From NCBI GenBank assembly GCA_963664405.1, contig OY761158.1, forward strand, positions 899,020-963,019: a stretch of DNA of 64,000 nt. Reading direction: 5' to 3'. The notes below the pieces were generated by a model. That model was not told the origin of the DNA. It did not search any database and was given only the letters and a program-made list of their open reading frames with translations. Position 1 is the stretch's first letter; each line of letters starts with the position of its first letter. The DNA comes from Thermoanaerobaculia bacterium (GTDB lineage Bacteria; Acidobacteriota; Thermoanaerobaculia; Multivoradales; Multivoraceae). The translations under genes were made by a program, and so were the position numbers. Positions 34,039-48,001 of the stretch are shown here, in pieces.

Positions 34039-35292
34039 TTACGCCCCGAACTTGGCCAGCTTGCCGGCGTTGGCCATCGCCAGCGGCAGAAGGTCGAGGT
34101 GACGCAGCGAGCCGAGACTCCCTCCACGGCAATCCATTTCGGTAAAGCTGCGCCCGTCCGGGCGGACAAGACGGCTCCATAACAACACCGGAAGCGGGTG
34201 CCAGGAATGGGCCCGCAACGGCACTGGTGTCGAGTGGTCGCCGGTGATCACGACGACGTCGGGCTCGCCTTCGAGGAGCTCGGGGAGGATGGCGTCGAAG
34301 TCTTCCACCTGCTCCGTCTTCTTTGCAGAATCGCCGTCCTCGCCATAGCTGTCGGTCTTCTTCACGTGAAAGTAGAGAAACTCGTAATCGCGACTATGAG
34401 CACGGTAGGAAGCCAGCTTTGCCGGCGTCCGCTCGCCGGTGCCCTCGAGATCGATCGGGGGGCACTCCATACCCACCAGCCGTGACACTCCGCGGTACAT
34501 CGGGTAAGCGGCGATCGAGCCTGCTCGAAGGCGGCAGATGTCACCAATCCGCGGCAGCTCAGGTCGTCTGCCAATGCCTCGCAAAAGCACCCCGTTGACC
34601 GCGGGCTCCGCCTCTCGCGCCACCGGCACATCGCTCAGCACCTCGGCGCAAAGCTCGGAAAGGCGCTCGAGGACGCTCGCCGTCCGACTGTCGGATTGAT
34701 CGCCGCTCTGAGCCTTCGCGGCTCGACGCGCCAGCCCGACCCGGCCCGGATCGGTGTCACCGACTTCCCCCCCGAGTCCCTCGCCGCGCAGCCGCACCAC
34801 GAACCTGTATTCGGACTCTGTATGGAGCTCGACCGCGACACCCTCGACTTCTGAGATCTCCGCCTTCAGGGCGGTTATCAGTTCCTCATTCAGCGCGGTC
34901 GAGATCCGCCCTGCCCGGCGATCCGCAACAAGGCCATCGTTGTCAAAAGTGGCAAAGTTGCCCCGAGCCGCCACCTCCTCACCGCCAAGATCGAGATCGA
35001 TCCCGAGCGCCGAGAGCACTCCTCGGCCGACGTCGTAGACCAGCGGGTCGTAACCGAAGAGGGAAAGGTGACCAGGCCCGCTACCGGGTGTGATCCCTGG
35101 AGCAACTACAGTCGAAAGCCCGAGAGACGCCTCTCGCGACAGCGCATCGAGATTGGGTGTATCAGCCGCCGAGAGCGGCGTTTCCCCATCGACGGGAACG
35201 TCACCGATGCCATCGAGAACCACCAAGAGGATTCTGGTGTCGCTGGCGATGCTGAGTCTCTGCAGCAGAGCGAGGGGATACGGCAACACCAT
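34039..35292 (-). CDS. apgM: Cofactor-independent phosphoglycerate mutase, archaeal type (ApgM)
   Basis: 417 aa. LLVVLDGIGD..., ...TPNLDAL..., ...ITGDHSTP... match the ApgM/metalloenzyme superfamily. Confidence 0.8.
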   Translation of the reverse strand: MVLPYPLALLQRLSIASDTRILLVVLDGIGDVPVDGETPLSAADTPNLDALSREASLGLSTVVAPGITPGSGPGHLSLFGYDPLVYDVGRGVLSALGIDLDLGGEEVAARGNFATFDNDGLVADRRAGRISTALNEELITALKAEISEVEGVAVELHTESEYRFVVRLRGEGLGGEVGDTDPGRVGLARRAAKAQSGDQSDSRTASVLERLSELCAEVLSDVPVAREAEPAVNGVLLRGIGRRPELPRIGDICRLRAGSIAAYPMYRGVSRLVGMECPPIDLEGTGERTPAKLASYRAHSRDYEFLYFHVKKTDSYGEDGDSAKKTEQVEDFDAILPELLEGEPDVVVITGDHSTPVPLRAHSWHPLPVLLWSRLVRPDGRSFTEMDCRGGSLGSLRHLDLLPLAMANAGKLAKFGA

Positions 35293-35317: not shown

Positions 35318-35830
35318 CTAACTGACCGGCCCGCAGCAGATGCGGAGGTCGCCGGGGTTCTTATGGTCGTAGCGCCACAGCAGCTCCCCCCTCAGCGCGT
35401 CCAGGGCGAAGAGACGATTGTGCGAAGAGGTGGCGTAGAGGATGCCGTCATATACGACCGGCGAGGTTTCGAGCTGAATCGCCACGCCCGTCGGCAGCAT
35501 CCACGCCAAACGTAAGCTACTCAGGCTCTCGGCGTCGAGCGCCTCGATCGGAGAGTGGCGCCAGGCCGCGAAGTTACCGCCGAAGTGGAGCCAGGCAGCG
35601 GCCGTCGGCGAGTCGGCGAGCAGCTCGTCGGTCACCGGCCCCATCCCTCTCCCGGCGGGCGCGTCGCGGGTCCAGTGGCTGGCTGCAGGACCCACGCCGG
35701 GATTCCCCTCGCCCTGCTGGGCCGGCAGCAGATTTCCCGAGAAGGCAGCGAGGCACAAGAGAAGAGCGAGTGCCCGCAACGAGCTGGTCAATCCGAGTCG
35801 ACCCGTCGGCCGGAAAAGCTGAACTTCTGA
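35318..35830 (-). pseudogene. N-terminal about 170-aa remnant of a PQQ-dependent alcohol dehydrogenase, truncated right after the CC ring motif
   Basis: Signal peptide then ...AAAWLHFGGNFAAWRHSPIEALDAESLSSLRLAWMLPTGV...ETSPVVYDGILYATSSHNRLFALDALRGELLWRYDH...RICCGPVS* parallels the N-terminus of the intact PQQ-ADH at 58694..60358 but stops 26 nt before the apgM start. Confidence 0.65.
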
Positions 35831-37374
35831 CTGCCGAGCTCCACTTCGCCTGAAAGCTCGGAGGACTCGAAGCCACCCCTTCCCTGCACTGCCAGCCGGC
35901 CGAACGAAGAAGCCAGGATGGCGCTGAAGCCCGCATCTCCGCCCGCGACTTCTATCAGCCGACCTTCGATTAGCTCTCCATTGATCGGGATGTACCACAT
36001 CCCCTCTCCCTCGGACGGAAAGTGCAGCACCGTCTCTATCACTTCGTCCTCGTTCTGATCTCGCTCCCATACCCGAACGGCAAAGACTTCTCCGGGATGA
36101 TCCCGCCTGAGCTCGGCGGAGATGAGCTTCAGTCTGTCCTCCGCGCTGAGAGGGCGCAGCCCCTCTTTCACGGTGTAGTCGACGAAGCCGATCATCATCT
36201 CGTCGAAGGACTCATTGCCGAAGGTCACGTCGACACTCGGGTCCGGGTTGTCCGGGTTGTCCGGGTTGCCGGCCGAGTTGTCGAAGTGGGCAAGGCAATC
36301 GATGCGAGTACCGGCAGGAAGATCGAGGGGCGCCTCGAGCTCGTAGACGGTCTGCCAGTTGAAGTCGTAGCCCGGCACCCGCAGAAGGGTCTCGCGCCTG
36401 CCGTCCGGGTAGATGGCCGTGTAGGTGAAGTCCCTGCCCCGATAGTGCATATGAGGAAAGAGAGAGTAGAGCACGCTGTCCTGCCGGAAGGTGAAAGACG
36501 AGCGCACCGCGTGATTCTCGGCGCCGGAGGGAATCTTGAATCCGGTATTCTGCACCCACAAGTTGACCAGCTCTTTCTCGGGCTCGCCTTCGAGGAAGTG
36601 CAGACCGATACGCGTCTGGTCGCTACTGGCAGCGTCGGTCGGGTGGTAGTGCATGTCCGCAACGATCCTCGAGCCCTTCTTGAGCAGTCGACCCGTTCCT
36701 TCAGGGAAAGTCATCGGAACCATCCCTGCGGCCCACGCACCGAGCCAACCGGTCGGCGATTGCTGGCCGTCTTCGAGCACGAAGATGATCACGTGGTGCA
36801 CGACTCGGCGGTTCGAAGGCAGAATCTCGATCGACTGCACCCAACGGTCCTCGGGCAGCTCATACGTCGCGGACATGTTCTTGAAGACATCAGGACCGCC
36901 CCCCGCGAGCTCGACGGCGTCAAAGGCCACCTCGAGGTCGGGTTCACCCAGGCGCCAGCCGTCGCCGAAAGCGGGGACCGTCGGCATGTCCGCAGGATCG
37001 CCCGCCGGCGCACCCTGCTTGACCCAACGTACGAGAATCTCTTTCTCCCGGTCGCTCAGCCGCCGATCATTCGAGAACTTGCCGTAGGACGCATCGGCGT
37101 GCCACGGAGGCATGGTTCCCTCACTCACGGCTCGCCGAATGGACTTCGCCCACGGACGAACCTCGTCGTAGCTGCGAAGGGCCATCGGGGCGATGTCGTC
37201 GGGTCGGTGACAGGTCACGCACTTTTAGTGCAGAACGGGCGCGACATCTCTGCTGAAGCTGATCTTCTTGGGCAGGTCCGCCACGTCGGTGGCGGCGGGA
37301 CGGCTGGCGGCAAGAATCGGAGCCGCGGTCACCGTAGCGGCGACGAGCAACGTGACGGAAGAAACGATCTTCAT
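35788..37374 (-). pseudogene. Secreted PSCyt1-type cytochrome c domain protein with a C-terminal copper type II monooxygenase-like (PHM/DBH-like) region; an in-frame TAA stop sits inside the conserved heme-motif region
   Basis: ATG at 37374 gives MKIVSSVTLLVAATVTAAPILAASRPAATDVADLPKKISFSRDVAPVLH*KCVTCHRPDD.... The stop (37225-37227, minus strand) interrupts the conserved F-x-RDV-x-P-I/V-L...CxxCH block. The track ORF 35788..37218 begins at the GTG of that CxxCH motif. Confidence 0.65.
36241..36267 (-). repeat. Perfect 9-bp tandem repeat x3 (AACCCGGAC on the coding strand) encoding NPDNPDNPD
   Basis: gtccgggttgtccgggttgtccgggtt on the plus strand. It lies inside the monooxygenase-like domain of the gene above. 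Confidence 0.6.
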
Positions 37375-37443
37375 GGAGTCTCCTTGGGCATCCTCTGTCT
37401 AGGACGAGAAAAGTCCGATTTGGTTTCACCCGAGATCGTACTT

Positions 37444-38871
37444 TCAGCCCTCTTGGTAGGCCCGGTGCCGAAACAAAAACTCGATGATGTTGCCTTCGTG
37501 CGGCTGAAACCAGTCTAACTTGATCGTCGGGATCGCGCCAAGGTTGAGCCGGTCGATGTTGGTCGCATCCTTGAGCTGAGCGCGGAACTGGGCGTCCTCG
37601 GTGATCGCACTTCCGACCAGAGTCTGGCCGATCGAGCCGAGCATCTTCTCCTGCGGGCACTCGACCACCGAGGCGAAGGGGAACATGTACTCACTGTGGG
37701 CGAGAGGGGCTTCCGGCGACGGGCAGTGGATGATCGTAGGACAGAGATAGTCGCAGCGCTCCTTGGCAACCAATCGATCTTCGCCATCGTTTCGCGCTCT
37801 TGCCGTCATGTCGGCTGCGCCTCCCTCACCTAGCTGGTCTTCGATCTGATTCGATACCGCCTCGGCTACGCCGGGCACGGTAAAGGCCGCCAAGGCGCTC
37901 TCCGGGTCGGTCGCCGACAGCGGACGCACCGGAGCCAATCGCTCCGCCAGCGCGGTGGCGATCTCTTTGGTGTGCCGAGAGGCCCAGATTCCGGAGCAAT
38001 TGATGCAGCCGCGACCACTGTTCAGCAGCACGCTATCCGTCATGATGTCGAGATAGCTCTCCCAGTCGTCGACCACGTCGTCGCCAAGCAGGATCTTGGA
38101 GAAGCCAGGCCCGTGGACCTGCACCGACGGATCGCCCTTGTACTGCTCCACGGTAGCGGTTCCGCCGAAGATCAAGCTCTTCGAGCACCCCGCGAGAACG
38201 GCGGCGCCGATGTCACCAAGCCCGGGGTAAATACAGATCGTCTCTCGCGGGACACCGGCCTCGAAGAAAGCCTGTGTCATGCGAAAGGGGGTCCACGGCT
38301 CCTGCGGACCCGGCTTGAACACCAGACCGATCTGCAGAGGGATGATGGGAAGCCACAGCGTATGCACACCCGGCGAGTTCGAGGGCAGGACCAGGCCAAG
38401 GACTGGAGAAAGCGCCTGATAGCTCACCGGAACTCCACGCTCTTCGACCCCATTCCCCTCGCTCAGAATCTCGAGCGGCAGGCCTCTTGTGAGCGAAGCG
38501 AGGATCTCCTCCATATGGGTGAGGACGAAGTGGTTCTTCTCCATATTCGCCCGCGACATATGCTCGGGCAAGCCGGTCGTCGCCGACTGCATGCGGACGA
38601 AATCGGCAGGGCTCTGGGTGCCGTTGCCGAGCTGAAGATCGCCCTCCATGTAGAGGTCGGCCACCTTCTTCATCATCTCGAGGAGCTCGCGAATGGGGAT
38701 CTCCCTCAGTAGGTCGCGGGCTCGCTGCTGCTTGCGCATGTCCCTCTGCACCATGCCGGCGTTGGCCTGACTGATCTGGGCCAGCTCCTCACCGGTCTCG
38801 AAGTGGACCACCGAGTCCTTCTCGAGGCTGTCGTAGGGCTGTCCCCAGCGAATCAACGGAATATCAAGCAT
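37444..38871 (-). CDS. Aldehyde dehydrogenase superfamily protein (acyl-CoA/aldehyde reductase-like)
   Basis: Start trimmed to MLDIPLIRWGQPYD (AGGAG Shine-Dalgarno). ...LVLPSNSPGV... and ...LLNSGRGCINCSGIWASRH... are the catalytic Cys region of the ALDH fold. Confidence 0.75.
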   Translation of the reverse strand: MLDIPLIRWGQPYDSLEKDSVVHFETGEELAQISQANAGMVQRDMRKQQRARDLLREIPIRELLEMMKKVADLYMEGDLQLGNGTQSPADFVRMQSATTGLPEHMSRANMEKNHFVLTHMEEILASLTRGLPLEILSEGNGVEERGVPVSYQALSPVLGLVLPSNSPGVHTLWLPIIPLQIGLVFKPGPQEPWTPFRMTQAFFEAGVPRETICIYPGLGDIGAAVLAGCSKSLIFGGTATVEQYKGDPSVQVHGPGFSKILLGDDVVDDWESYLDIMTDSVLLNSGRGCINCSGIWASRHTKEIATALAERLAPVRPLSATDPESALAAFTVPGVAEAVSNQIEDQLGEGGAADMTARARNDGEDRLVAKERCDYLCPTIIHCPSPEAPLAHSEYMFPFASVVECPQEKMLGSIGQTLVGSAITEDAQFRAQLKDATNIDRLNLGAIPTIKLDWFQPHEGNIIEFLFRHRAYQEG

Positions 38872-38914
38872 TTCGACTCCTAGTATTGGCCGGATTGGCG
38901 CCGGTTCCCGGTCG

Positions 38915-39991
38915 TCAGTAGACTCCGACAGTGGTCGTAGAGGCCATCTTGGCAAAGGGACGCACGCCACTGATCCCGTCCCAGGGGTAGGCTTCGTATG
39001 GCGGCTCGCGCTCCCCTTCATCGCGCTCGAGGAATCCTGGCACAAAAAACTCCTTGGTGAGCGTGGTCAGACGCACTCGACCGGTCTCGCCATAACCAAC
39101 GACCTGGTCGGGATTGTCGGGATCCACGACTTCGATCGCGGCTCGGGGCTGGGGCGCGTAGTAGCTGATCTTGTAGCCGTCCTCGGAACCGACCGGCTTG
39201 GAAGCGGCCAACCCCATCAACGTATTACCGTAGGTCGGTGCAATATAGGTCCCGTCGAGAAACTCTTCCACGGCGAAGCGGGTCCACTGCGGAGTGAACT
39301 CGGTGCCGCCGGCAAAGATCCCTCGCACCCCCTTCTCGCGAATGCTCGTGCCTTCCTCTTCTAAGCGCAGACACAAGGCTTCGATGAGCTTCGGCGTGCC
39401 GAACATGCACTGAATGTCGTGGCCGGCGTCGAGGACCGTGATCGCCTGGTCGACGCAGTGATCCTGATAGGCCTTGAAATGATCCATCCACCCCTTGCGA
39501 ATGAGCTTCACCACCCAGCGCGGGTCGAGGTCGATGCAAAAGCAGATGCCGCCACGGAACTGGGCCAGGTGCTCCACCGAGAGGCGTAGCCGACGAGGTC
39601 CGGAGGGCCCGAACATGAGCCAGTTGGCACCCTTGGGAAAGTGCTCCTCGGGAAGGGTGTCGGAGAAGAGCTCGTAATCGGTACGAAAGTCGGCGATCGC
39701 GACGCGGCTCTTGGGCACTCCGGTAGTGCCGCCGGTCTCGAACACAAAGGCCGGCTGGCCGCTCAGCCCTTTCGGTATCCAGCGCTCTACGGGCCCACCG
39801 CGAAGCCACTCGTCTTCAAACGGTGGGAACTTGCGCAGGTCGGCAAAAGACTCGACCGCTTGACGAGGGTCGAAGCCCAAAGTGCTCGCCTTCTCCAGCC
39901 AGAAGGGACTGCCGGTGTCGGTATTGAAGTGCCACTCCATCATCTCGCGCACCTGGGCGTCGAGCATCTCTCGTGCTTCGTCTGGGGTCAC
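38915..39991 (-). CDS. Adenylate-forming enzyme of the PaaK/F390-synthetase/LuxE-like family
   Basis: 358 aa. FETGGTTGVPK is the AMP-binding P-loop-like motif, near the N-terminus as in PaaK/LuxE-type ligases. Co-oriented immediately upstream of the ALDH gene. Confidence 0.7.
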   Translation of the reverse strand: MTPDEAREMLDAQVREMMEWHFNTDTGSPFWLEKASTLGFDPRQAVESFADLRKFPPFEDEWLRGGPVERWIPKGLSGQPAFVFETGGTTGVPKSRVAIADFRTDYELFSDTLPEEHFPKGANWLMFGPSGPRRLRLSVEHLAQFRGGICFCIDLDPRWVVKLIRKGWMDHFKAYQDHCVDQAITVLDAGHDIQCMFGTPKLIEALCLRLEEEGTSIREKGVRGIFAGGTEFTPQWTRFAVEEFLDGTYIAPTYGNTLMGLAASKPVGSEDGYKISYYAPQPRAAIEVVDPDNPDQVVGYGETGRVRLTTLTKEFFVPGFLERDEGEREPPYEAYPWDGISGVRPFAKMASTTTVGVY

Positions 39992-40066
39992 CGGGAGCTC
40001 TCCTTGTAGTCGTCGCCTCGACCGAGTCGAGGAGGTCGAGGCCGCTGAATTATAGACCGAGCCGGC

Positions 40067-41125
40067 TCACTGCGGGGAGTGATGTGTGGCCACTCTTCCG
40101 CCGCATCTGGAGCCCTCGAGGAGAGTGAAGAAACGCACGATCTGCTCTTCTGCCCAGTGCCTGGTCGTTCCGGGCGTAGGGCCGTGGACGAACCCGGCAT
40201 GCCCGCCGCGAGGTGTGAAACGCGGTACCAACCAAGGCGACCGCTCGCAAATCTGGTGAGGCAGCGTAGAACCGGGGTTGAAGGGGTCATCTTCCGCCGC
40301 TATCAGTACTGTGGGAACGCGCACGCCGTCGAGAAACTGACCACAGCCCACTTTGCTCCAATAGTCGAAAGCATCATCGAAGCCGTGGAGTGCCGCGGTC
40401 GCCCAGGTGTCGAAGTCGGCGAAGGTGCGACTCGCAGCGATCTTTTCGCGATCGAGCAGTCCCGGATATTGGCGCGCCTTCTCCAGCGCCTTGGGGATGA
40501 GAGTGCGCAGGAACCTACGCACATAAAGACCGCCGAGTGCGCCATCAATGGCAGGACCACTCACTCGCAGGTCGAAGGGAGGAGAGACCACAGCCGCGGC
40601 GGCAACCTGCGCCGGCACCTGCTCCTCTCTCTCGCCGAGCCACTTAGCGAGTACGTTGCCACCCAGCGAGAAACCCGCGATATAGAGCGGCACGCCCGGA
40701 GCGCGGCGGCGAAGCTCGTCCTGGACAAAGTCGAGATCGGTGGTCTCCCCCGAGTGATAGAGCCGGGGAGCAAGGTTGATGTCTCCGTCGCAGGAGCGGA
40801 ACTCGAGAGCAGCCACGCTCCAGCCGAGAGCAACAAAGGCATGGCGCAAACCGACTATGTAATTAGACGAAGCGCACCCTTCGAGGCCGTGCAGCAGGAG
40901 CACGAGGGGCCTCTCTTGGCGTCCGTCATGGAGCCACAGGCTCAGCCGATCGCCGTCGGGAGTCTGCCAGTGCTCGCGGCGCCCTCCGGGAGGGGGCTGG
41001 CGGCGAAAGAAGGGGCTCCAGATCGTCTGCGCGTGGCGGCCGCGCAACCACCACGGCGGACGGAATGGAAAGCGTGAGAGCTCTTCGACCGCGGCGGCCT
41101 TATCGAAGGCGAAGCCAGTGGGCAA
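40067..41125 (-). CDS. YheT-like alpha/beta hydrolase
   Basis: ...PLVLLLHGLEGCASSNYI...YIAGFSLGGNVLAKWL... is the nucleophile elbow, with the C-terminal His region. Confidence 0.8.
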   Translation of the reverse strand: MPTGFAFDKAAAVEELSRFPFRPPWWLRGRHAQTIWSPFFRRQPPPGGRREHWQTPDGDRLSLWLHDGRQERPLVLLLHGLEGCASSNYIVGLRHAFVALGWSVAALEFRSCDGDINLAPRLYHSGETTDLDFVQDELRRRAPGVPLYIAGFSLGGNVLAKWLGEREEQVPAQVAAAAVVSPPFDLRVSGPAIDGALGGLYVRRFLRTLIPKALEKARQYPGLLDREKIAASRTFADFDTWATAALHGFDDAFDYWSKVGCGQFLDGVRVPTVLIAAEDDPFNPGSTLPHQICERSPWLVPRFTPRGGHAGFVHGPTPGTTRHWAEEQIVRFFTLLEGSRCGGRVATHHSPQ

Positions 41126-41128
41126 GTT

Positions 41129-41737
41129 TCAGACTCGATTGCGATAGAGCGCGGGATCCACGACCTCGGCCATCGCTCGCCGGTCTAGCCCGCCGCCCAG
41201 AAACTCATCAAGACGACGGGCGTGAGGCTCCGGATCCGCGAGAACTTCCCTGTAGCTGACGAAGAGCGTGTCGAGATGGCGCCGATACCCCACCATGAAC
41301 CTCACGTGGCGCAGGTGCTCGACATAGACCTCGCGCATCTTCTCGTCTTCGGGGCCACTCTCCTCTTCGCGGTGCTCCAGCATCTTCTGCTGCGAGCGCA
41401 ACACTTCGCTCAGATCGCGCTCCATGAACACGACCTTGTAGTTGTTGTCGGCCGGAAGATCCTTGAGCAGGAAAGAGATGACCTTGATCGCTTTGCCTCG
41501 CGATCGGCGCAGCCATCTGCGGTCTTCCATCTTCGCAAGGTCCTTGACCCGCTCGTCTTCGTAGTAGCCCCTGGGGTTGTCGTCGTCGGCGATGCGTACG
41601 CCGTCAACGGTGACCTCGAGCCCCCCTGCCTCGAGCATCTTCATCGCCATCGAGGTGCCGGAGCGGGGCAAGCCCGAAACGACGACGACCGGTCGCCCAA
41701 AACGGATTCTTCTGAGCAGCTGGGAGAGTCCGACCAT
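41129..41737 (-). CDS. Sulfotransferase-family protein (P-loop PAPS-binding 5'-PSB motif)
   Basis: VVVSGLPRSGTSMAMKML is the 5'-phosphosulfate binding motif. 202 aa. Co-oriented with the upstream hydrolase (4-nt gap). Confidence 0.7.
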   Translation of the reverse strand: MVGLSQLLRRIRFGRPVVVVSGLPRSGTSMAMKMLEAGGLEVTVDGVRIADDDNPRGYYEDERVKDLAKMEDRRWLRRSRGKAIKVISFLLKDLPADNNYKVVFMERDLSEVLRSQQKMLEHREEESGPEDEKMREVYVEHLRHVRFMVGYRRHLDTLFVSYREVLADPEPHARRLDEFLGGGLDRRAMAEVVDPALYRNRV

Positions 41738-41873
41738 GATCGAGATTCGCCGCCGTACGATAGCGGCTCAGCAGGCCGTATCCTAGCTGAGCCAGCTTGA
41801 ATTAGCGGAACCGCGGCGCATACACTACCGCGGCGCAGCAAGGGTAGTTGGCAAACCTCAGAGACTCTCACCA

Positions 41874-44003
41874 TTGACTATTCAAGAAGGTCGCAAGCGA
41901 CCGCTCCTCCTGCTGGCCGGCAGCGCGCTGGCCTGCCTGTGCACCTCCCTCCCCGTCGCGGCCTACGTCGGCCCTGGCGCGGGTTTCGCCTTGGTCTCCG
42001 GTTTTCTCGTCATCTTCACCACCATTCTTCTCGCCGGCCTTGCGCTCCTGGTCTGGCCGTTCCGAATGATGTGGCGTCTGCTCCGTAACCGGGGTAGAAA
42101 GAAGCCTTCGATCCAACGTTTCATCGTCGTAGGACTCGACGGCCAGGACCCGCGCATCACCGACCGCCTGATCGCCGAGGGACGGCTGCCCAATCTTCAG
42201 CGGCTAGCTGAGATGGGGAGCTACGGGCGACTCGAAACGGTTTTCCCATCGCTCTCCCCCGTGGCCTGGTCGTCCTTCAGCACGGGCACCAACCCGGGCG
42301 GTCACAATATTTTCGACTTCGTCGAACGAGACACCAAGACCTACCTGCCGAAGCAGGCCTCGACCGAGATCGGCAAGCTCGAGCGCACCCTCAAGGTCGG
42401 GAAGTTTCGTATTCCTCTGCACAAGCCCACATTGCGGCTGCTACGTAAGTCCAAGCCGTTTTGGACCATCCTCGGCGAGAACAACATCTGGAGTACCGTC
42501 CTCCGCGTTCCGATTACGTTCCCACCGGATCGCTTCTACGGAGCTCAGCTCTCGGCAATGATGGTGCCCGACCTGCTCGGGACTCTCGGCACTTTCCTGT
42601 TTTTCACATCGCAGCCCAGCGCAGGTCAGATCAAAGAGGGCGGCCTTCGCTTTGAGCTCTCTCACGAGGGCGGAGCTTTTACCGCCATGATCGAGGGACC
42701 GGAGAACAGCTTCCTCGAGGGGGAGCCGCCGATGCAGATTCCCCTGCGCATTGTCCCCGACACGGCAACAGGGCGTGCCGAGATCACACTTGGCAAGGAA
42801 GTCATCGAGCTGGCGCCGAGGGAGCTCAGTAATTGGATCACGCTCACTTTCGATGCCGCGCCGGGCATCAAGGTGCAGGGGCTGACCCGCATCATGATCA
42901 CTGAGATGGGTGAGGAGGTCTCGCTCTATCTCTCGCCGATCAATCTCGACTCGGAGAAACCGGCGATGCCCATCTCCCATCCCTCCTACTACTCGACCTA
43001 CTTGTCGAAGAAGATCGGCAAGTACTCCACTCTCGGGCTTGCGGAGGACACCTGGGCCCTCAACGAAGGCATCACCGACGACGCCACCTTTCTCGAGCAG
43101 ACCTACGACATCGACAACGAGCGGCAGGAGATGTTCTTCGCCGCCCTAGATCGCCTTCGCAAAGGGGCTTTGGTCTGTGTCTTCGACGCCACCGACCGCA
43201 TTCAGCACATGTTCTGGCGCTACACCGAAAAAGGGCATCCCGCCGACTCCGGCTCCTCTGGCGGTGAGAACCGTGCCGCCATCGACGAGATCTACGTTCA
43301 CAATGACGAGTTGGTGGGCCGGGTGCTCGACAAGGTGCAGCCGAACGACGTCTTGTGTGTGATCTCGGACCACGGGTTCACCTCTTTCCGTCGCGGTGTC
43401 AACCTCAACCGTTGGCTGATGGACGAGGGTTATCTGACGCTCAAGGAAGGCGCGACGGGCGAGGGCGACCTGCTTGGTGATGTCGATTGGTCCAGGACTC
43501 GAGCGTACTTCCTCGGTCTGGCAGGGATGTTTCTCAACGTCAAGGGGCGGGAGGCGAAAGGCATCGTCTCTCGCGGCGAAGAGGCGAAGTCGTTGAAGGC
43601 CGAGATCATCGCCAAGCTCAACGGGCTTGTCGACGAAGAAAAGGGCGAGGTGGGAATCACCGAAGTCTTCGACACCGCCGAAATCTACTCGGGGCCCTAC
43701 CTCGGCAACGCACCGGACTTCATCATGGGCTACAACGAGGGCTACCGAACCTCGTGGGATTGCGCCAACGGCATCGTTGCCGGGCCCGTCTTCGAAGACA
43801 ACACGAAGGCCTGGAGTGGCGATCACGGGGTCGATCCGCGTCTCGTCCCCGGGGTCTTCTTCTGCAACCGAAAGGTCGACGCGGAAGAGCTCTCCCTGCT
43901 AGACCTGGCGCCAACGATTCTCACTCTCTTCGGCATCGAGCCTCCAAAGCACATGGAAGGCAAGCCCCTGTTCAAGCCGGACTCCTTTGGCGAGGCCGCG
44001 TGA
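41874..44003 (+). CDS. Alkaline-phosphatase-superfamily type I phosphodiesterase/nucleotide pyrophosphatase-like protein (PF01663-like), membrane-anchored, paralogue 1
   Basis: N-terminal TM helices, then IVVGLDGQDP..., ...PSLSPVAWSSFSTG..., ...VISDHGF..., ...WSGDHG.... 709 aa. Confidence 0.75.
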   Translation: MTIQEGRKRPLLLLAGSALACLCTSLPVAAYVGPGAGFALVSGFLVIFTTILLAGLALLVWPFRMMWRLLRNRGRKKPSIQRFIVVGLDGQDPRITDRLIAEGRLPNLQRLAEMGSYGRLETVFPSLSPVAWSSFSTGTNPGGHNIFDFVERDTKTYLPKQASTEIGKLERTLKVGKFRIPLHKPTLRLLRKSKPFWTILGENNIWSTVLRVPITFPPDRFYGAQLSAMMVPDLLGTLGTFLFFTSQPSAGQIKEGGLRFELSHEGGAFTAMIEGPENSFLEGEPPMQIPLRIVPDTATGRAEITLGKEVIELAPRELSNWITLTFDAAPGIKVQGLTRIMITEMGEEVSLYLSPINLDSEKPAMPISHPSYYSTYLSKKIGKYSTLGLAEDTWALNEGITDDATFLEQTYDIDNERQEMFFAALDRLRKGALVCVFDATDRIQHMFWRYTEKGHPADSGSSGGENRAAIDEIYVHNDELVGRVLDKVQPNDVLCVISDHGFTSFRRGVNLNRWLMDEGYLTLKEGATGEGDLLGDVDWSRTRAYFLGLAGMFLNVKGREAKGIVSRGEEAKSLKAEIIAKLNGLVDEEKGEVGITEVFDTAEIYSGPYLGNAPDFIMGYNEGYRTSWDCANGIVAGPVFEDNTKAWSGDHGVDPRLVPGVFFCNRKVDAEELSLLDLAPTILTLFGIEPPKHMEGKPLFKPDSFGEAA

Positions 44004-45931
44004 CCCGAGCTATTGCACTGGCCGCAACAGTGCTCCTTCTGCTCGGTTGCGGCGGAGCTAAGGCGCCGGAGAAGAGGATCATCGTCCTCGGCTTCGACGG
44101 CATGGACTACAGCCTCGCCCGTGAGCTGATCGACGAGGGGCGACTGCCCAATTTCGCCCGCCTCGAGCGCGAGGGAAGCTTCACCCCTCTCGAGACCTCC
44201 GTACCGCCCGAGAGCCCAGTGGCCTGGTCGAACTTCATCACCGGAATGGACTCGGGCGGCCATGGCATCTTCGACTTCATCCACCGCGACCCAGCGACAC
44301 TGCTTCCTTACGCCTCAGACTCGCGGGCGCTGCCGGAGGGGTTCACTCTGAAGCTCGGGAAGTGGCGTTTCCCCATCACCGGCGGTGGTTTCGAATCGCT
44401 GCGACAGGGTGAGCCTTTCTGGAAGACGCTCGAGGAGAGCGGTATCGAGACATGGATTCTGCGTATGCCCGCCAACTACCCGACCTCGGGTCTCGCGACT
44501 CGGGAGCTCAGCGGCATGGGCACACCGGACCTCAACGGGGCGAGCTTCTTTTCCTTCTACACGTCGGAGCTCTTCTACCCCACTGAAGGGATCACCGGCG
44601 GCGAAGTTTTCGAGTGGGATGTGTACGACAACGTGGCCGAGCACAAGCTCTTCGCAGCCGAGAACCCGTTGATCGAGGATGGCGAAAGGCTCAGCGTCGA
44701 CTTCAAGGTGTACCTCGATCCGGCGATCCAGGCGGCCAAGATCGAGGTCGCCGACGATGTCGAGCTCGTACTTCGCGTCGGAGAGTGGAGCGACTGGGTC
44801 GCCATCGAGTTCGACCTTCTTCCGTTCAAGAGTCTGCATGGCATCTGTCGCTTCTATCTCAAGTCGATCGAGCCAGAGCTCGAGCTCTACGTGAGCCCGA
44901 TCAATTTCGATCCGCTGCTACCGGACGCACCGATCTCGACACCGGCGTCCTACGCCACCGAGCTGGCCGAGGCCGACGGCCGTTTTTACACCCAGGGCAT
45001 GCCGGAGGACACCAAGGCTCTGACCGGCGGCGTGCTCGAGATCGACCAGTTCCTCGAGCAGGCTGCGATTGCGGGTCGAGAGATCGCGGACCAGTACCAG
45101 AGTGTTCTGGCAGACTTCACCGACAGCACTGCGGGGCTGCTCTTCTATTACACCGGCAACCCGGACCAGATCTCCCACGCGATGTGGATCACCCGGGACC
45201 CCCAACACCCGGCTTGGGATGAAGAGACCTACGGCCGATACCGCGATCTCATTCCCAGCGTCTACGAGAGCCTCGACCGGATGGTGGGTCACACCCTCGA
45301 CACCATGAGCTCTGACACCACCCTGGTGGTGATGTCAGATCACGGGTTCGCTTCCTGGCGACGCAGCCTGAACCTCAACACCTGGCTGGTGGAGAACGGT
45401 TTCATGGTTCTCAGCGACCCGGACCTCGAGGTCGACCCCGGCTTCTTCGGCAACGTCGATTGGAGCCGTACTCGTGCCTACGGCATGGGCATCAACGGCT
45501 TGTACATCAATCTCCAGGGGCGCGAGAAAAACGGCGTCGTCTCGCCGAGCGAGCGCGAAGCGTTGATGGACGAGATCGCGACCGCGCTCCTCGCGACCAT
45601 AGATCCGGAGACCGGCGCACCCGCCGTAACCAAGGTCTACCGGCGCGAGGAGGTCTATAAAGATCGCGGTCAGCTGGAGATAGGACCCGATATCCAGATG
45701 GGTTACGCGAAGGGCACTCGCGGCTCGAGCCAAGGGGCGCTCGGAGATATCGAGCCTCAAGTCCTGCGCGACAATCTAGACGACTGGAGTGGCGACCACA
45801 TAATGGACCACGAAAGCGTGCCGGGCGTCCTCTTCACCAGTCGCCAACTGGCACGCGAGGCACCGAGCCTAAAGAGCCTTGCAGCCGCGATCATCGCCGA
45901 GATGGACGTCAAAGCAGAGTTCCCGCAGTAG
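43999..45931 (+). CDS. Alkaline-phosphatase-superfamily phosphodiesterase-like lipoprotein (PF01663-like), paralogue 2
   Basis: GTG start overlaps the paralogue-1 stop (GTGA). Lipobox LLLGCGG. ...IIVLGFDGMDY..., ...PPESPVAWSNFITG..., ...VMSDHGF..., ...WSGDHI.... Confidence 0.75.
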
Positions 45932-45965
45932 GCGCTCGCAGCCAGGCACAGGAAGGAAAACAACC

Positions 45966-46157
45966 ATGTTCGGATCCAAGGTAAAGCTCGACAAAGGTCT
46001 TCTGGCGAAGGTCAAGAAATACTCGGATATAGCCGGCTACTCCTCGCCCAAGGAGTTCATCACCCACGCCCTCGAAAAAGAGCTGGCGCTGCTCGAAGAC
46101 GCCGACTCCGAAGAGGAGATTCGCAAGCGTCTGAAGGGCCTAGGCTACATTTCCTGA
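45966..46157 (+). CDS. Small 63-aa protein with a ribbon-helix-helix-like pattern
   Basis: Shine-Dalgarno GGAAGGAAAACAACCATG. SKVKLDKGLLAKVKKYSDIAGYSSPKEFITHALEKELA fits beta-strand plus two helices. I trimmed the track ORF to the internal ATG. Confidence 0.5.
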   Translation: MFGSKVKLDKGLLAKVKKYSDIAGYSSPKEFITHALEKELALLEDADSEEEIRKRLKGLGYIS

Positions 46158-46168
46158 GGACTCGCTCG

Positions 46169-47002
46169 ATGGCGGTATTCAACGCGCTCGTAAGGCGCCT
46201 CATCGACGCCCTCTTGGGGCCGTTCCAAAACTACCCGGCGATGGTGACTCTGCTGCCGATCTCGGTGGTGGTCACCGTTGCCGCGCTGTTGGTGCTCAAG
46301 CGAACCTCGAACCAGGAGGCTCTCAACCGCGTCAAGGCGAAGACGCACGCCGGCATCTTCGAGATCAGGCTCTTCAACGACGATCTGAGGGCCATCTTCT
46401 CGGCCCAACGGAACATCTTGGTTCAGGTAGCAAAGCAGATCGGCCTGACCCTAGTGCCCCTGCTGTGGATGCTAGTGCCGATGGCCGTCCTCCTCCCTCA
46501 GCTCCAATTCCAGTACGGCTACCTTGGCATCGAGCCCGGCGAGCCGGTGCTCCTCATCGCCACCCTCGACGCACCGCTGGGAGCCGACGAGACGAAGCCG
46601 GTCTTTCACCTCGAGACCCCCACCGGCGTTCGCGCGGAGACGGGGCCAATCTGGGTGCCCGCCAAGAACGAGCTGGTGTGGCGCCTGGTGGCGGATGAGC
46701 GCGGCAGCTTTGAGCTCTTGATCGTCGATGGCGGGGGAGGTAAGTCGGTCACCAAGAGCCTGGAGGTCTCGGACCAGATCCGAAGGCGCTCGCCGAAGAG
46801 GGTTACCGGCTTCTGGTCCCAAATCGCCTACCCCGCCGAGTCCCCGCTGCCGCCCGGTGCGCCTTTTCGGGAGATCTCCCTCGCCTACCGAGACGCAGAA
46901 GTCAGCTTTTTCGGCTGGGAGACCAACTGGATGATCGCCTTCCTCCTGCTCACCCTCGTCTTCGCCTTTGCCCTACGCGGGCCCCTTGGCGTCACCTTCT
47001 AG
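46169..47002 (+). CDS. Hypothetical membrane protein; its stop codon TAG is the terminal CTAG of a MITE
   Basis: 277 aa with several hydrophobic segments. It starts 12 nt after the small RHH-like gene. Confidence 0.55.
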   Translation: MAVFNALVRRLIDALLGPFQNYPAMVTLLPISVVVTVAALLVLKRTSNQEALNRVKAKTHAGIFEIRLFNDDLRAIFSAQRNILVQVAKQIGLTLVPLLWMLVPMAVLLPQLQFQYGYLGIEPGEPVLLIATLDAPLGADETKPVFHLETPTGVRAETGPIWVPAKNELVWRLVADERGSFELLIVDGGGGKSVTKSLEVSDQIRRRSPKRVTGFWSQIAYPAESPLPPGAPFREISLAYRDAEVSFFGWETNWMIAFLLLTLVFAFALRGPLGVTF

Positions 47003-47163
47003 ACCAGCGTTTCCGAAGTTCGCGCACAGTTCTCGGCCCCTTCTGCCCGCTGGCGGCGTTGCGCCTCCTCGACATAGTCCCTGCTATGCCTGCGTCGGCG
47101 CGCCTTGCCAGCGAACAGAATGACCTCGAGTTCTGTACACGAACTTCGGAAACGCTGGTCTAG
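46999..47163. mobile_element. MITE copy b (165 bp)
   Basis: ctagaccagcgtttccgaagttcg...cgaacttcggaaacgctggtctag. Same family as 19269-19434 and 48683-48846. Confidence 0.75.
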
Positions 47164-47216
47164 CCAGACGGCCGAGGCGGCCAGAGAGCGATCGCTCGTA
47201 GGAGACGCGCTCGCCC

Positions 47217-48001
47217 TCAGCTAAGGCTGGGAATCTTGGCGCGCAGGAACTTTCTTGTCTTTTCGATCGCTCGCCGCACATTTTGCGGTTCTTTCCATTC
47301 TGTGACGAGCTCGGCATTCTGCGCCAGCGCGGCGATCTCTCGCGCGATCGGCAGCGGGTGGTAGAGATCGTTTCCCGCCAGGATCAGAAGCGGCGTCTCG
47401 ACTGTTCGCACAAAGTCGCGGCCGACATTGAACAAGAAATCGCGGTTGTACATACTGTTGCGAAAAGGAGCAAGGGTGCCGTCCTCGAGACCATCCTGGC
47501 GCTCCTTCATGTCGTCGGCCCAGCCGTCGAACATCTCGTAGAACGCCGCTCGATTGTCGTGAAGCCCGATCGGGCTCTGCAGAACAGCCGCGGTGACTCT
47601 GCCGGGGTCTGCCTCCATGACCCCGAATGCGTAGGAGCAGCCAATGCAGCCGCCATAGAGGTGGCAGCTCTCGATCTCGAGGTGATCGAGCAGAGCAATC
47701 TGGTCGGAGGTATAGCTCTGCCACCCGTCGCTCGCTCGCACCGGCGCAGTCGAACCGCCCGCGTTGCGCTGATCCATGGCTATCACCCGGAAATCAGCCG
47801 AGAGCTCCAGCCGTGGGTCGAAAGGAGAGCGCTCCCAGGTATCGGCGCTGGAGCGCATGCCGCCGGGAGCGAAGAGCAGTAGAGGGTAGCCAGCCCCGCT
47901 CTCTTCCCAATGGATCTTGACACCCCCCCCGCTCGAAGATCGGCAATTCGTGAGCCCCCGTAGTCGATCCGTTTGACTCTGCCAGAAGGGCAGCCTAGCA
48001 T
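47217..48001 (-). pseudogene. Alpha/beta hydrolase with a frameshift at a C8 (G8 on the coding strand) homopolymer
   Basis: The track ORF 47217..47858 carries the nucleophile elbow (HLYGGCIGCSYAFG) and C-terminal half. The N-terminal ...ADLRAGGVKIHWEESGAGYPLLLFAPGG is in another frame. The two meet at cacccccccc (47923-47930). Confidence 0.6.
47923..47930. repeat. C8 homopolymer at a frameshift site
   Basis: Read directly. G7 or G10 on the coding strand would restore the frame. Confidence 0.8.

Follow-up and report, generated by a model that had tools for sequence, protein, structure and literature searches.

Do genes that lie tightly packed in one genome belong to one pathway? This question is raised by a block of eight genes in a stretch of 64,000 nucleotides (nt) from a Thermoanaerobaculia bacterium (Acidobacteriota; assembly GCA_963664405.1, contig OY761158.1, positions 899,020 to 963,019), hereafter called the window, the positions of which are used throughout. 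On the minus strand, the block encodes an aldehyde dehydrogenase (ALDH)-like protein, an adenylating enzyme of the ANL superfamily (referred to as ANL), a YheT-like alpha/beta hydrolase, and a 3'-phosphoadenosine 5'-phosphosulfate (PAPS)-type sulfotransferase. On the plus strand, it encodes two phosphodiesterase paralogues of the alkaline phosphatase (AP) superfamily (PDE1 and PDE2), a protein of 63 amino acids (aa), and a membrane protein of 277 aa. A first-pass annotation, made from the DNA letters alone, had suggested that genes of this block act together in the synthesis or remodelling of a sulfated or phosphorylated lipid or glycolipid. Comparison with related loci leads to another answer. 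The region probably consists of two independent conserved modules, which are neighbours only in Acidobacteriota, together with a lineage-specific YheT-like hydrolase. Module A comprises ANL and the ALDH-like protein; Module B comprises the sulfotransferase, PDE1, PDE2 as an optional member, the 63-aa protein, and the 277-aa membrane protein.

This answer follows from two sets of related loci (denoted by L and a number), one anchored on ANL and one on PDE1. The ANL-anchored set contained 82 loci from Acidobacteriota and Planctomycetota. The PDE1-anchored set likewise amounted to 82 loci, of which 80 came from metagenomes and the other two from a Gemmatimonadota genome and a genome of 9.3 Mb. 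The sulfotransferase/PDE block was found near ANL in 10 of the 82 ANL-anchored loci, all of them Acidobacteriota, and a YheT-like gene in a single one. Seen from the other side, ANL was present in one PDE1-anchored locus (1/82), and neither the ALDH-like gene (0/82) nor the YheT-like gene (0/82) was retrieved. The ANL, ALDH-like, and YheT-like genes were likewise absent from all 25 PDE1-anchored loci with at least 4.5 kb of upstream sequence. Moreover, no acyltransferase, acyl carrier protein, or glycosyltransferase was a conserved member of either module. The proposed eight-gene lipid pathway is thus left without support, as its neighbourhood is not conserved, an outcome that the first-pass annotation had itself named as speaking against it.

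Module A is encoded by the ANL gene (38915-39991, minus strand; 358 aa) and the ALDH-like gene (37444-38871, minus strand; 475 aa from its ATG, in a frame that is open to 39045), the latter located 43 nt downstream on the same strand. As judged from sequence comparison, the pair probably belongs with the two-component carboxylate reductases represented by EhpF/EhpG and GriC/GriD. Indeed, ANL matched the Pfam family AMP-binding (32 bits) and its partner the Pfam family Aldedh (59 bits), and EhpF was the sole close relative of ANL with a solved structure (3hgu/3l2k; E-value of 8e-42; residues 14-347 against residues 27-357 of 369). A more direct comparison was offered by two adjacent genes inside a phz/ehp-type cluster on an Escherichia coli plasmid. 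ANL, compared over its whole length (349 aa aligned), shared 36% identity with the EhpF-like member of this cluster, and the ALDH-like protein was 23% identical over approximately 420 aa to its EhpG-like protein (E-value of 1e-21), with which it has the idiosyncratic motifs GPGxxK and C-terminal PH(E/D) in common. The pair had initially been described as an acyl-activation/reduction pair reminiscent of LuxC/LuxE; the kind of pair still holds, but the likeness to LuxC/LuxE does not, since neither PF05893 (LuxC) nor PF04443 (LuxE) was matched, only Aldedh and AMP-binding being reported at an E-value of 0.01 or lower, and the relatives are EhpF/EhpG and GriC/GriD.

Both catalytic residues expected of the ALDH-like protein, Cys289 (catalytic) and Asn165 (oxyanion), were invariant in 74 of 74 homologues. 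In contrast, the general-base Glu of canonical ALDH enzymes (motif LEAGGKS in KauB) was replaced by His253 in all 74 sequences and by Gln in the EhpG-like protein. The retention of Cys289 together with the loss of the Glu fits an enzyme that holds an acyl-thioester for hydride reduction rather than for hydrolysis. By analogy, the two proteins would convert a carboxylate into an aldehyde in an ATP- and NAD(P)H-dependent way. ANL would react a free carboxylic acid with ATP to give an acyl-adenylate, Cys289 of the ALDH-like partner would receive the acyl group as a thioester, and reduction of the latter by NAD(P)H would release the free aldehyde; His253, in the place of the water-activating Glu, would disfavour hydrolysis of the thioester. 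The aldehyde may subsequently be interconverted with the alcohol, as suggested by alcohol dehydrogenases encoded near the pair in both phyla.

The closest known system is EhpF/EhpG of the D-alanylgriseoluteic acid (phenazine) pathway of Pantoea agglomerans (3hgu, 3hgv, 3l2k). EhpF, in the 2010 work of Bera and colleagues, is said to be an atypical ANL enzyme without the C-terminal subdomain and, reportedly, was proposed to reduce phenazine-1,6-dicarboxylate to the aldehyde together with EhpG via an adenylate. An ehpF deletion mutant is reported to accumulate phenazine-1,6-dicarboxylate. The window pair resembles this system in the truncated ANL protein of approximately 355-370 aa, ANL of the window too being without the C-terminal subdomain, in the ALDH-family gene directly next to it, in homology from end to end, and in the retained Cys and lost Glu of the ALDH-like partner. 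It differs in the residue at position 253 mentioned above and in its setting, as EhpF/EhpG are encoded in a phz/ehp antibiotic cluster, whereas biosynthetic genes, phz or other, are lacking around the pair in the clade of the window. Indeed, no phz, gri, 3-deoxy-D-arabino-heptulosonate 7-phosphate (DAHP) synthase, or nonribosomal peptide synthetase genes were found in the window or in the 82 ANL-anchored loci. In further contrast to EhpF, the ANL clade of the window is a tight orthologous group, with approximately 71% identity across two phyla.

A second precedent is GriC/GriD of grixazone biosynthesis in Streptomyces griseus. According to PMC10179220, which cites Suzuki et al. 2007, GriC (AMP-binding) forms the acyl-AMP of 3-amino-4-hydroxybenzoate and GriD reduces it to the aldehyde. 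This system too divides the work between an AMP-binding enzyme and an ALDH-like reductase, as two proteins. Among Streptomyces homologues of ANL, with 35-37% identity, the names in use are "AMP-binding protein" and "arylcarboxylate reductase", the latter given by NCBI to some that are 35% identical. One of those called AMP-binding (H2) has an ALDH gene directly downstream; the order of ANL followed by ALDH recurs in Streptomyces as well as in a haloarchaeon. In Streptomyces, the genes lie in an aromatic-acid secondary-metabolite cluster, a context that the window does not have. Two distant pairs, 36-37% identical to that of the window, were encountered on plasmids: one of Streptomyces goshikiensis, next to genes for DAHP synthase and PabB (L169), and one of Halalkalicoccus jeotgali (plasmid 2), behind a sodium:solute symporter gene (L170). 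These contrasting contexts indicate that the two-gene module is reused in both biosynthetic and catabolic-looking settings.

Module A is common and strongly conserved. More than 8000 homologues of ANL were found, the best 120 of the matches listed being at least 73% identical, and at least 596 loci occurred in species-representative genomes. The best 80 loci belonged almost exclusively to Acidobacteriota (Thermoanaerobaculia and Vicinamibacteria) and Planctomycetota (Pirellulales). The EhpF-like family as such is small, with 282 clusters at an E-value of 1e-30 or lower in an exhaustive search of representatives; beyond the ANL clade, full-length relatives were 61, 50, 47, and 42% identical, followed by others at 33-39%. 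The ALDH-like gene adjoined ANL in 74 of the 82 ANL-anchored loci, the exceptions being mostly short contigs. Neighbour-joining trees separated Acidobacteriota from Planctomycetota for 77 of 79 ANL sequences and for all 73 ALDH sequences, mean ANL identity being approximately 75% within a phylum against approximately 71% between phyla, and the ANL and ALDH distance matrices were correlated (r=0.73). These matching trees and correlated distances indicate that the pair has been inherited together, mostly vertically, and under very strong constraint. The flanking genes were phylum-specific. Those of Planctomycetota encoded an ErcA-like iron-dependent alcohol dehydrogenase after the ALDH-like gene (21 loci), a BamB-like propeller, and a HemN-like radical SAM protein. 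Those of Acidobacteriota encoded a pterin carbinolamine dehydratase, a LolD-like ABC ATPase, and an FtsX-type permease, as well as a pyrroloquinoline quinone (PQQ) dehydrogenase near ANL (8 loci). No neighbour of the pair was conserved across both phyla among the 82 loci. The high identity between phyla and the lack of a biosynthetic-cluster context suggest that the substrate is a small metabolite of common occurrence and not a precursor of an antibiotic.

Module B forms a self-contained, membrane-associated cassette. Among the PDE1-anchored loci with enough flanking sequence for each count, the sulfotransferase gene preceded PDE1 in 59 of 61, mostly in divergent orientation, the 63-aa gene in 35 of 36, and the membrane-protein gene (approximately 275 aa) in 29 of 29. 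PDE2 was less constant (32/39); in the variant without it, the 63-aa gene directly follows PDE1 (L019, L092, L093, L107, L114, L116, L122, L126, L139, L140, L148, and L155). The Gemmatimonadota genome and the 9.3-Mb genome carried the intact cassette without Module A. No further genes conserved with the cassette were found in the PDE1-anchored loci, and a literature search found no published description of this five-gene cassette.

Concerning its enzymes, the sulfotransferase (41129-41737, minus strand; 202 aa), divergent from PDE1, matched Sulfotransfer_3 of Pfam with 39.5 bits (cut-off 27). Its 5'-phosphosulfate-binding motif GLPRSGTS and the 3'-phosphate-binding residues R107 and S115 were invariant in 76 of 76 sequences, in agreement with its initial description as PAPS-type. 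It should be cytoplasmic, because it has no signal or membrane segment. PDE1 (41874-44003, plus strand; 709 aa) and PDE2 (44000-45931, plus strand; 643 aa) matched Phosphodiest (PF01663) with 96.7 and 106.3 bits, respectively, both well over the cut-off of 23. For PDE1, more than 7700 homologues were found, the top matches being 64-77% identical. Its invariant columns include D89, S128, D441, H445, D499, H500, and H651, which, when mapped to the ligands of NPP, would correspond to the two-metal site of the AP superfamily and its Ser nucleophile. The N-terminal motif Y31-G37 (AYxGPGAGF) and the hydrophobic hairpin of PDE1 are invariant as well. The description of PDE1 as membrane-anchored and of PDE2 as a lipoprotein agrees with two N-terminal hydrophobic segments in the former and a lipobox-like LLLLGC at the start of the latter. 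The catalytic domain of PDE1 probably faces the cytoplasm, as suggested by a basic cluster following the second hydrophobic segment, and its lipobox makes PDE2 a putative periplasmic lipoprotein. Compared with the NPP/PhnA family of PF01663 members, with which they share these scores and, in the case of PDE1, the invariant putative two-metal residues, both proteins are unusual in their length (640-710 aa) and in a large inserted beta-rich region. In addition, the putative nucleophile is Ser instead of Thr, and PDE1 adds the conserved N-terminal membrane hairpin. The best match of known structure was PhnA (E-value of 0.007 over 66 residues), and a PDB search retrieved no close solved structure for PDE1 or the sulfotransferase.

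The 63-aa protein (45966-46157, plus strand) was 63-86% identical across loci and always ended in GLGY[IML]S. Its initial label as a small ribbon-helix-helix (RHH) protein received no support, as no Pfam match was obtained at an E-value of up to 10 and a PDB profile search with a profile of 22 homologues returned no RHH protein; the likeness appears to consist of a beta-alpha-GxS-alpha sequence pattern. A further likeness was seen at the C-terminus (RLxGLGY[IML]S; 46112-46157), which resembles IAKLQSLGYLGG in a PDE-TPR fusion protein of L086 (16105-18558, minus strand), where this element stands between the AP and TPR domains. Speculatively, the tail of the 63-aa protein may be an AP-domain-associated element that is supplied in trans.

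The 277-aa membrane protein (46169-47002, plus strand), encoded beyond the coordinates covered by the first-pass annotation, is the most unusual element of the region, being a bacterial DUF106-like member of a fixed cassette. Its structure model, with a predicted local distance difference test (pLDDT) score of 89, displayed an immunoglobulin (Ig)-like beta-sandwich of approximately 130 aa inserted between the second and third transmembrane segments and had a TMCO1/DUF106-like appearance, which would place the protein in the Oxa1 superfamily. Similarly, eight of its 28 homologues matched PF01956 (EMC3_TMCO1), and some carry the JGI label DUF106. According to PMC5868721, DUF106 is a family of archaea and eukaryotes. 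Unlike TMCO1, EMC3, and archaeal Ylp1 (DUF106), the window protein is bacterial and carries the Ig-like beta-sandwich; moreover, the former are general biogenesis factors, whereas the gene of the latter shares a cassette with those of AP-superfamily enzymes and of a sulfotransferase. Its role would be to insert or scaffold the PDE1 hairpin, or else to carry a lipid-linked product over the membrane.

Taken together, these features allow a joint, tentative and rather doubtful, reading of both modules. Module B would be an undescribed envelope system of Acidobacteriota and Gemmatimonadota, built on a protein of the DUF106/TMCO1 branch, and Module A a housekeeping carboxylate reductase. The partners of the Oxa1-like protein would be an AP-superfamily enzyme anchored by a hairpin, in many cases also a lipoprotein paralogue of this enzyme, and a PAPS sulfotransferase. 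With its Ig-like domain in the periplasm, the Oxa1-like protein might act as a dedicated insertase for the PDE1 hairpin; alternatively, it might be a scramblase for a lipid-linked product that is sulfated or phosphorylated. The 63-aa protein might bind via its invariant LGY tail, and Module A might reduce a primary metabolite common to Planctomycetota and Acidobacteriota.

Several points weigh against the interpretation given so far. First, the modules adjoin in approximately four lineages of Acidobacteriota, namely that of the window with L167 and L168, L019, a Multivorans-like group, and two Vicinamibacterales; such a recurrent adjacency could mean that the modules are weakly linked in function, not that synteny was inherited. 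Second, the identity of the ALDH-like protein to EhpG is low (23%), and the link with GriC/GriD relies on the literature and on the NCBI name of homologues that are 35% identical. Third, the direction of the reaction is deduced, an oxidative role (from aldehyde to acid) being conceivable given the PQQ alcohol dehydrogenase and cytochrome c genes close to the pair in relatives. Fourth, the 277-aa protein of the window itself scored under the PF01956 threshold. Lastly, the structure model of PDE1, built from a 12-sequence alignment, was poor (pLDDT of 55), leaving its topology and the role of its inserted domain putative.

Among the alternatives, the one that survives best assigns a role to the YheT-like hydrolase (40067-41125, minus strand; 352 aa), which the two-module reading leaves aside. 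This protein matched Abhydrolase_1 of Pfam and aligned over its full length (residues 21-335 of 352) with NCBIfam PRK10985, at 201 bits against a cut-off of 267, which makes it a predicted relative, not an equivalog, of YheT. Together with ANL and the ALDH-like protein, it could constitute a LuxD/LuxE/LuxC-like fatty-acid reductase in the lineage of the window, in which the hydrolase would free an acid that the pair turns into a fatty aldehyde. The three genes lie on one strand, 75 and 43 nt apart, the motifs GFSLGG, DDPF, and GGHAG of the hydrolase can be read as an intact Ser/Asp/His triad, and the logic is parallel to that of LuxD, LuxE, and LuxC, in which an adenylate-forming enzyme activates the acid and an ALDH-superfamily reductase yields the aldehyde, with an alpha/beta hydrolase upstream of the pair. 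Nevertheless, such a function is unlikely. Apart from the missing LuxC and LuxE matches, the hydrolase is YheT-like instead of LuxD-like and is not conserved with the pair; besides the window, its gene was found only in L019, L167, and L168, hence alongside the pair in just four of approximately 85 loci. Further, the characterised relatives of the pair use aromatic rather than fatty acids, and strong conservation across phyla would be odd for a broad fatty-acid enzyme. The YheT-like hydrolase is therefore considered lineage-specific and outside both conserved modules. As an aside, a perfect 7-bp hairpin (CCTCGAC-CGA-GTCGAGG; 40018-40034) is present in the 75 nt that separate the YheT-like gene from ANL, and GGAGAG is found 6 nt ahead of the GTG start codon of ANL; together, these elements suggest that ANL may have its own translational or transcriptional control.

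The single pathway, in which a lipid-type acid would be activated and reduced and a product sulfated or phosphorylated by the remaining enzymes, so that a lipid or glycolipid is made or remodelled by all eight genes, must be considered very unlikely. It can draw on the eight-gene order, which is kept in L167 and L168 (97.7% identical DNA) and, except for PDE2, in L019, as well as on the ten ANL-anchored loci with a nearby sulfotransferase block; a predicted cytoplasmic sulfotransferase combined with AP-family enzymes in the membrane and periplasm would also suit an envelope product. Yet the near absence of ANL and the complete absence of the ALDH-like and YheT-like genes from the PDE1-anchored loci, as well as the lack of a conserved acyltransferase, acyl carrier protein, or glycosyltransferase, argue against it. 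Moreover, the cassette occurs alone in Gemmatimonadota and the reductase pair alone in Planctomycetota. Even where the modules do adjoin, in the Multivorans-like loci, the ALDH-like gene has been displaced to the opposite strand, with ANL convergent on the sulfotransferase gene, indicating that co-transcription was not kept.

An equally improbable alternative is that Module A runs oxidatively. A PQQ- or iron-dependent alcohol dehydrogenase would make an aldehyde, which would be converted via the enzyme thioester into an acyl-AMP, serving either aldehyde detoxification or the saving of thioester energy as ATP from AMP and pyrophosphate. Without the hydrolytic Glu, the thioester would be kept for such a transfer, PQQ dehydrogenase and cytochrome c genes are found downstream of the ALDH-like gene in a close relative, and the dehydrogenases near the pair (PQQ-dependent in the eight Acidobacteriota loci, ErcA-like in the 21 Planctomycetota loci) point the same way. 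However, the family precedents are reductive, namely the reported ehpF mutant phenotype and GriC/GriD. To our knowledge, ATP formation by an ANL enzyme in vivo is without precedent. In addition, PQQ dehydrogenases are periplasmic, as opposed to the cytoplasmic ANL/ALDH pair, and the window itself has a truncated PQQ dehydrogenase and no cytochrome c.

Finally, an identity of the pair with PaaZ and PaaK of phenylacetate catabolism, the other genes being unrelated, which the first-pass annotation had put forward as the classification that would speak against its proposal, can be dismissed as next to impossible, as the NCBIfam matches to haloarchaeal PaaK (18 bits, cut-off 700) and PaaZ (PaaN-DH; 23 bits, cut-off 563) on which it draws were far under their cut-offs, ANL is without the C-terminal subdomain required for CoA thioester formation, and no further paa genes occurred in the window or the related loci.

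If Module A is indeed a split carboxylate reductase of the GriC/GriD type, such enzymes are not confined to the antibiotic pathways from which their few known examples come. As a strongly conserved orthologous group, it suggests that the core metabolism shared by Acidobacteriota and Planctomycetota, which are abundant soil and marine phyla, includes an acid/aldehyde step that has gone unrecognised; being compact and without a carrier protein, it may also be of use in biocatalysis. Module B, which is widespread, would place a TMCO1/DUF106-like protein of the Oxa1 superfamily in bacteria, and its substrate, once found, would add an envelope or a phosphate- or sulfate-related function for poorly studied phyla. 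Tight gene spacing in one genome was no predictor of a shared pathway here.

The 136-nt spacer between the divergent sulfotransferase and PDE1 genes had been credited with two palindromes, possibly operators. The first exists as an inverted repeat of 8 bp (GGCTCAGC-N13-GCTGAGCC), but it is at the level of chance, as repeats of this size were reached by 5% of shuffled sequences and by 36 of 470 real 136-nt tiles. It was absent from 63 other sulfotransferase-PDE1 spacers; the 97.7% identical relatives are too close to inform on operator conservation. The second is not a palindrome but an 11-bp direct repeat, ACCGCGGCGCA (41810-41820 and 41827-41837), which is rare by chance (0.13% of shuffles; 3 of 470 tiles). 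Its copies exactly flank the putative -10 element TACACT (41821-41826) of a promoter-like motif on the plus strand (41797-41837 with the repeats), of which TTGAAT (41797-41802), 18 nt upstream, forms the other half. Of 64 relatives, 16 have a promoter-like motif, TTGC..N17..TATACTACA, in the corresponding spacer. A consensus scan of 37000-47300 for promoters and terminators found no more sites than in shuffled sequence and, because the TTGAAT-N18-TACACT match of the window is under the threshold of that scan, the promoter is a candidate one. The direct repeats around the -10 element are plausibly an operator arrangement, specific to the lineage of the window.

The gene calls of the first-pass annotation proved largely accurate. 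Every open reading frame was located at the coordinates given or a few bases off, and Pfam returned the domains that had been assigned (Aldedh, AMP-binding, Abhydrolase_1, Sulfotransfer_3, and two Phosphodiest). The GTGA sequence coupling the stop codon of PDE1 to the start codon of PDE2 is a real overlap. The gaps of 4-45 nt reported between the minus-strand genes were wrong, the real ones being 43, 75, and 3 nt. For all eight genes, the lengths agree with those of called genes in a relative that is 97.7% identical to the window, and exact matches in public collections were found for five proteins, namely ANL, the YheT-like hydrolase, the sulfotransferase, PDE1, and the 63-aa protein.

Downstream of the ALDH-like gene, the sequence departs in places from that of relatives. 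The next gene (35788-37374, minus strand) combines an N-terminal CxxCH haem motif with motifs of PHM/DBH-like copper monooxygenases (HHVIIF, MHYH, and HMHYRG), and has an in-frame stop near codon 50 (APVLH, the stop, then KCVTCH). Within it, 322 nt (36662-36983) are absent from the 97.7% identical L167 and present in L003. Conversely, alignment of 35318-36070 with positions 14328-16093 of L167 revealed that 1766 nt are missing from the window, covering the C-terminal part of a PQQ-dependent dehydrogenase (approximately 430 aa), a 138-aa cytochrome c, and the first codons of a metalloenzyme resembling cofactor-independent phosphoglycerate mutase. The window hence keeps only a truncated remnant of the PQQ dehydrogenase, through either a real deletion or an assembly artefact. 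The metalloenzyme gene itself (34039-35292; archaeal-type, PF10143 and PF01676) lies further downstream; it brings the AP-superfamily genes within 12 kb to three, and its place near the pair is kept in L003 and L167.

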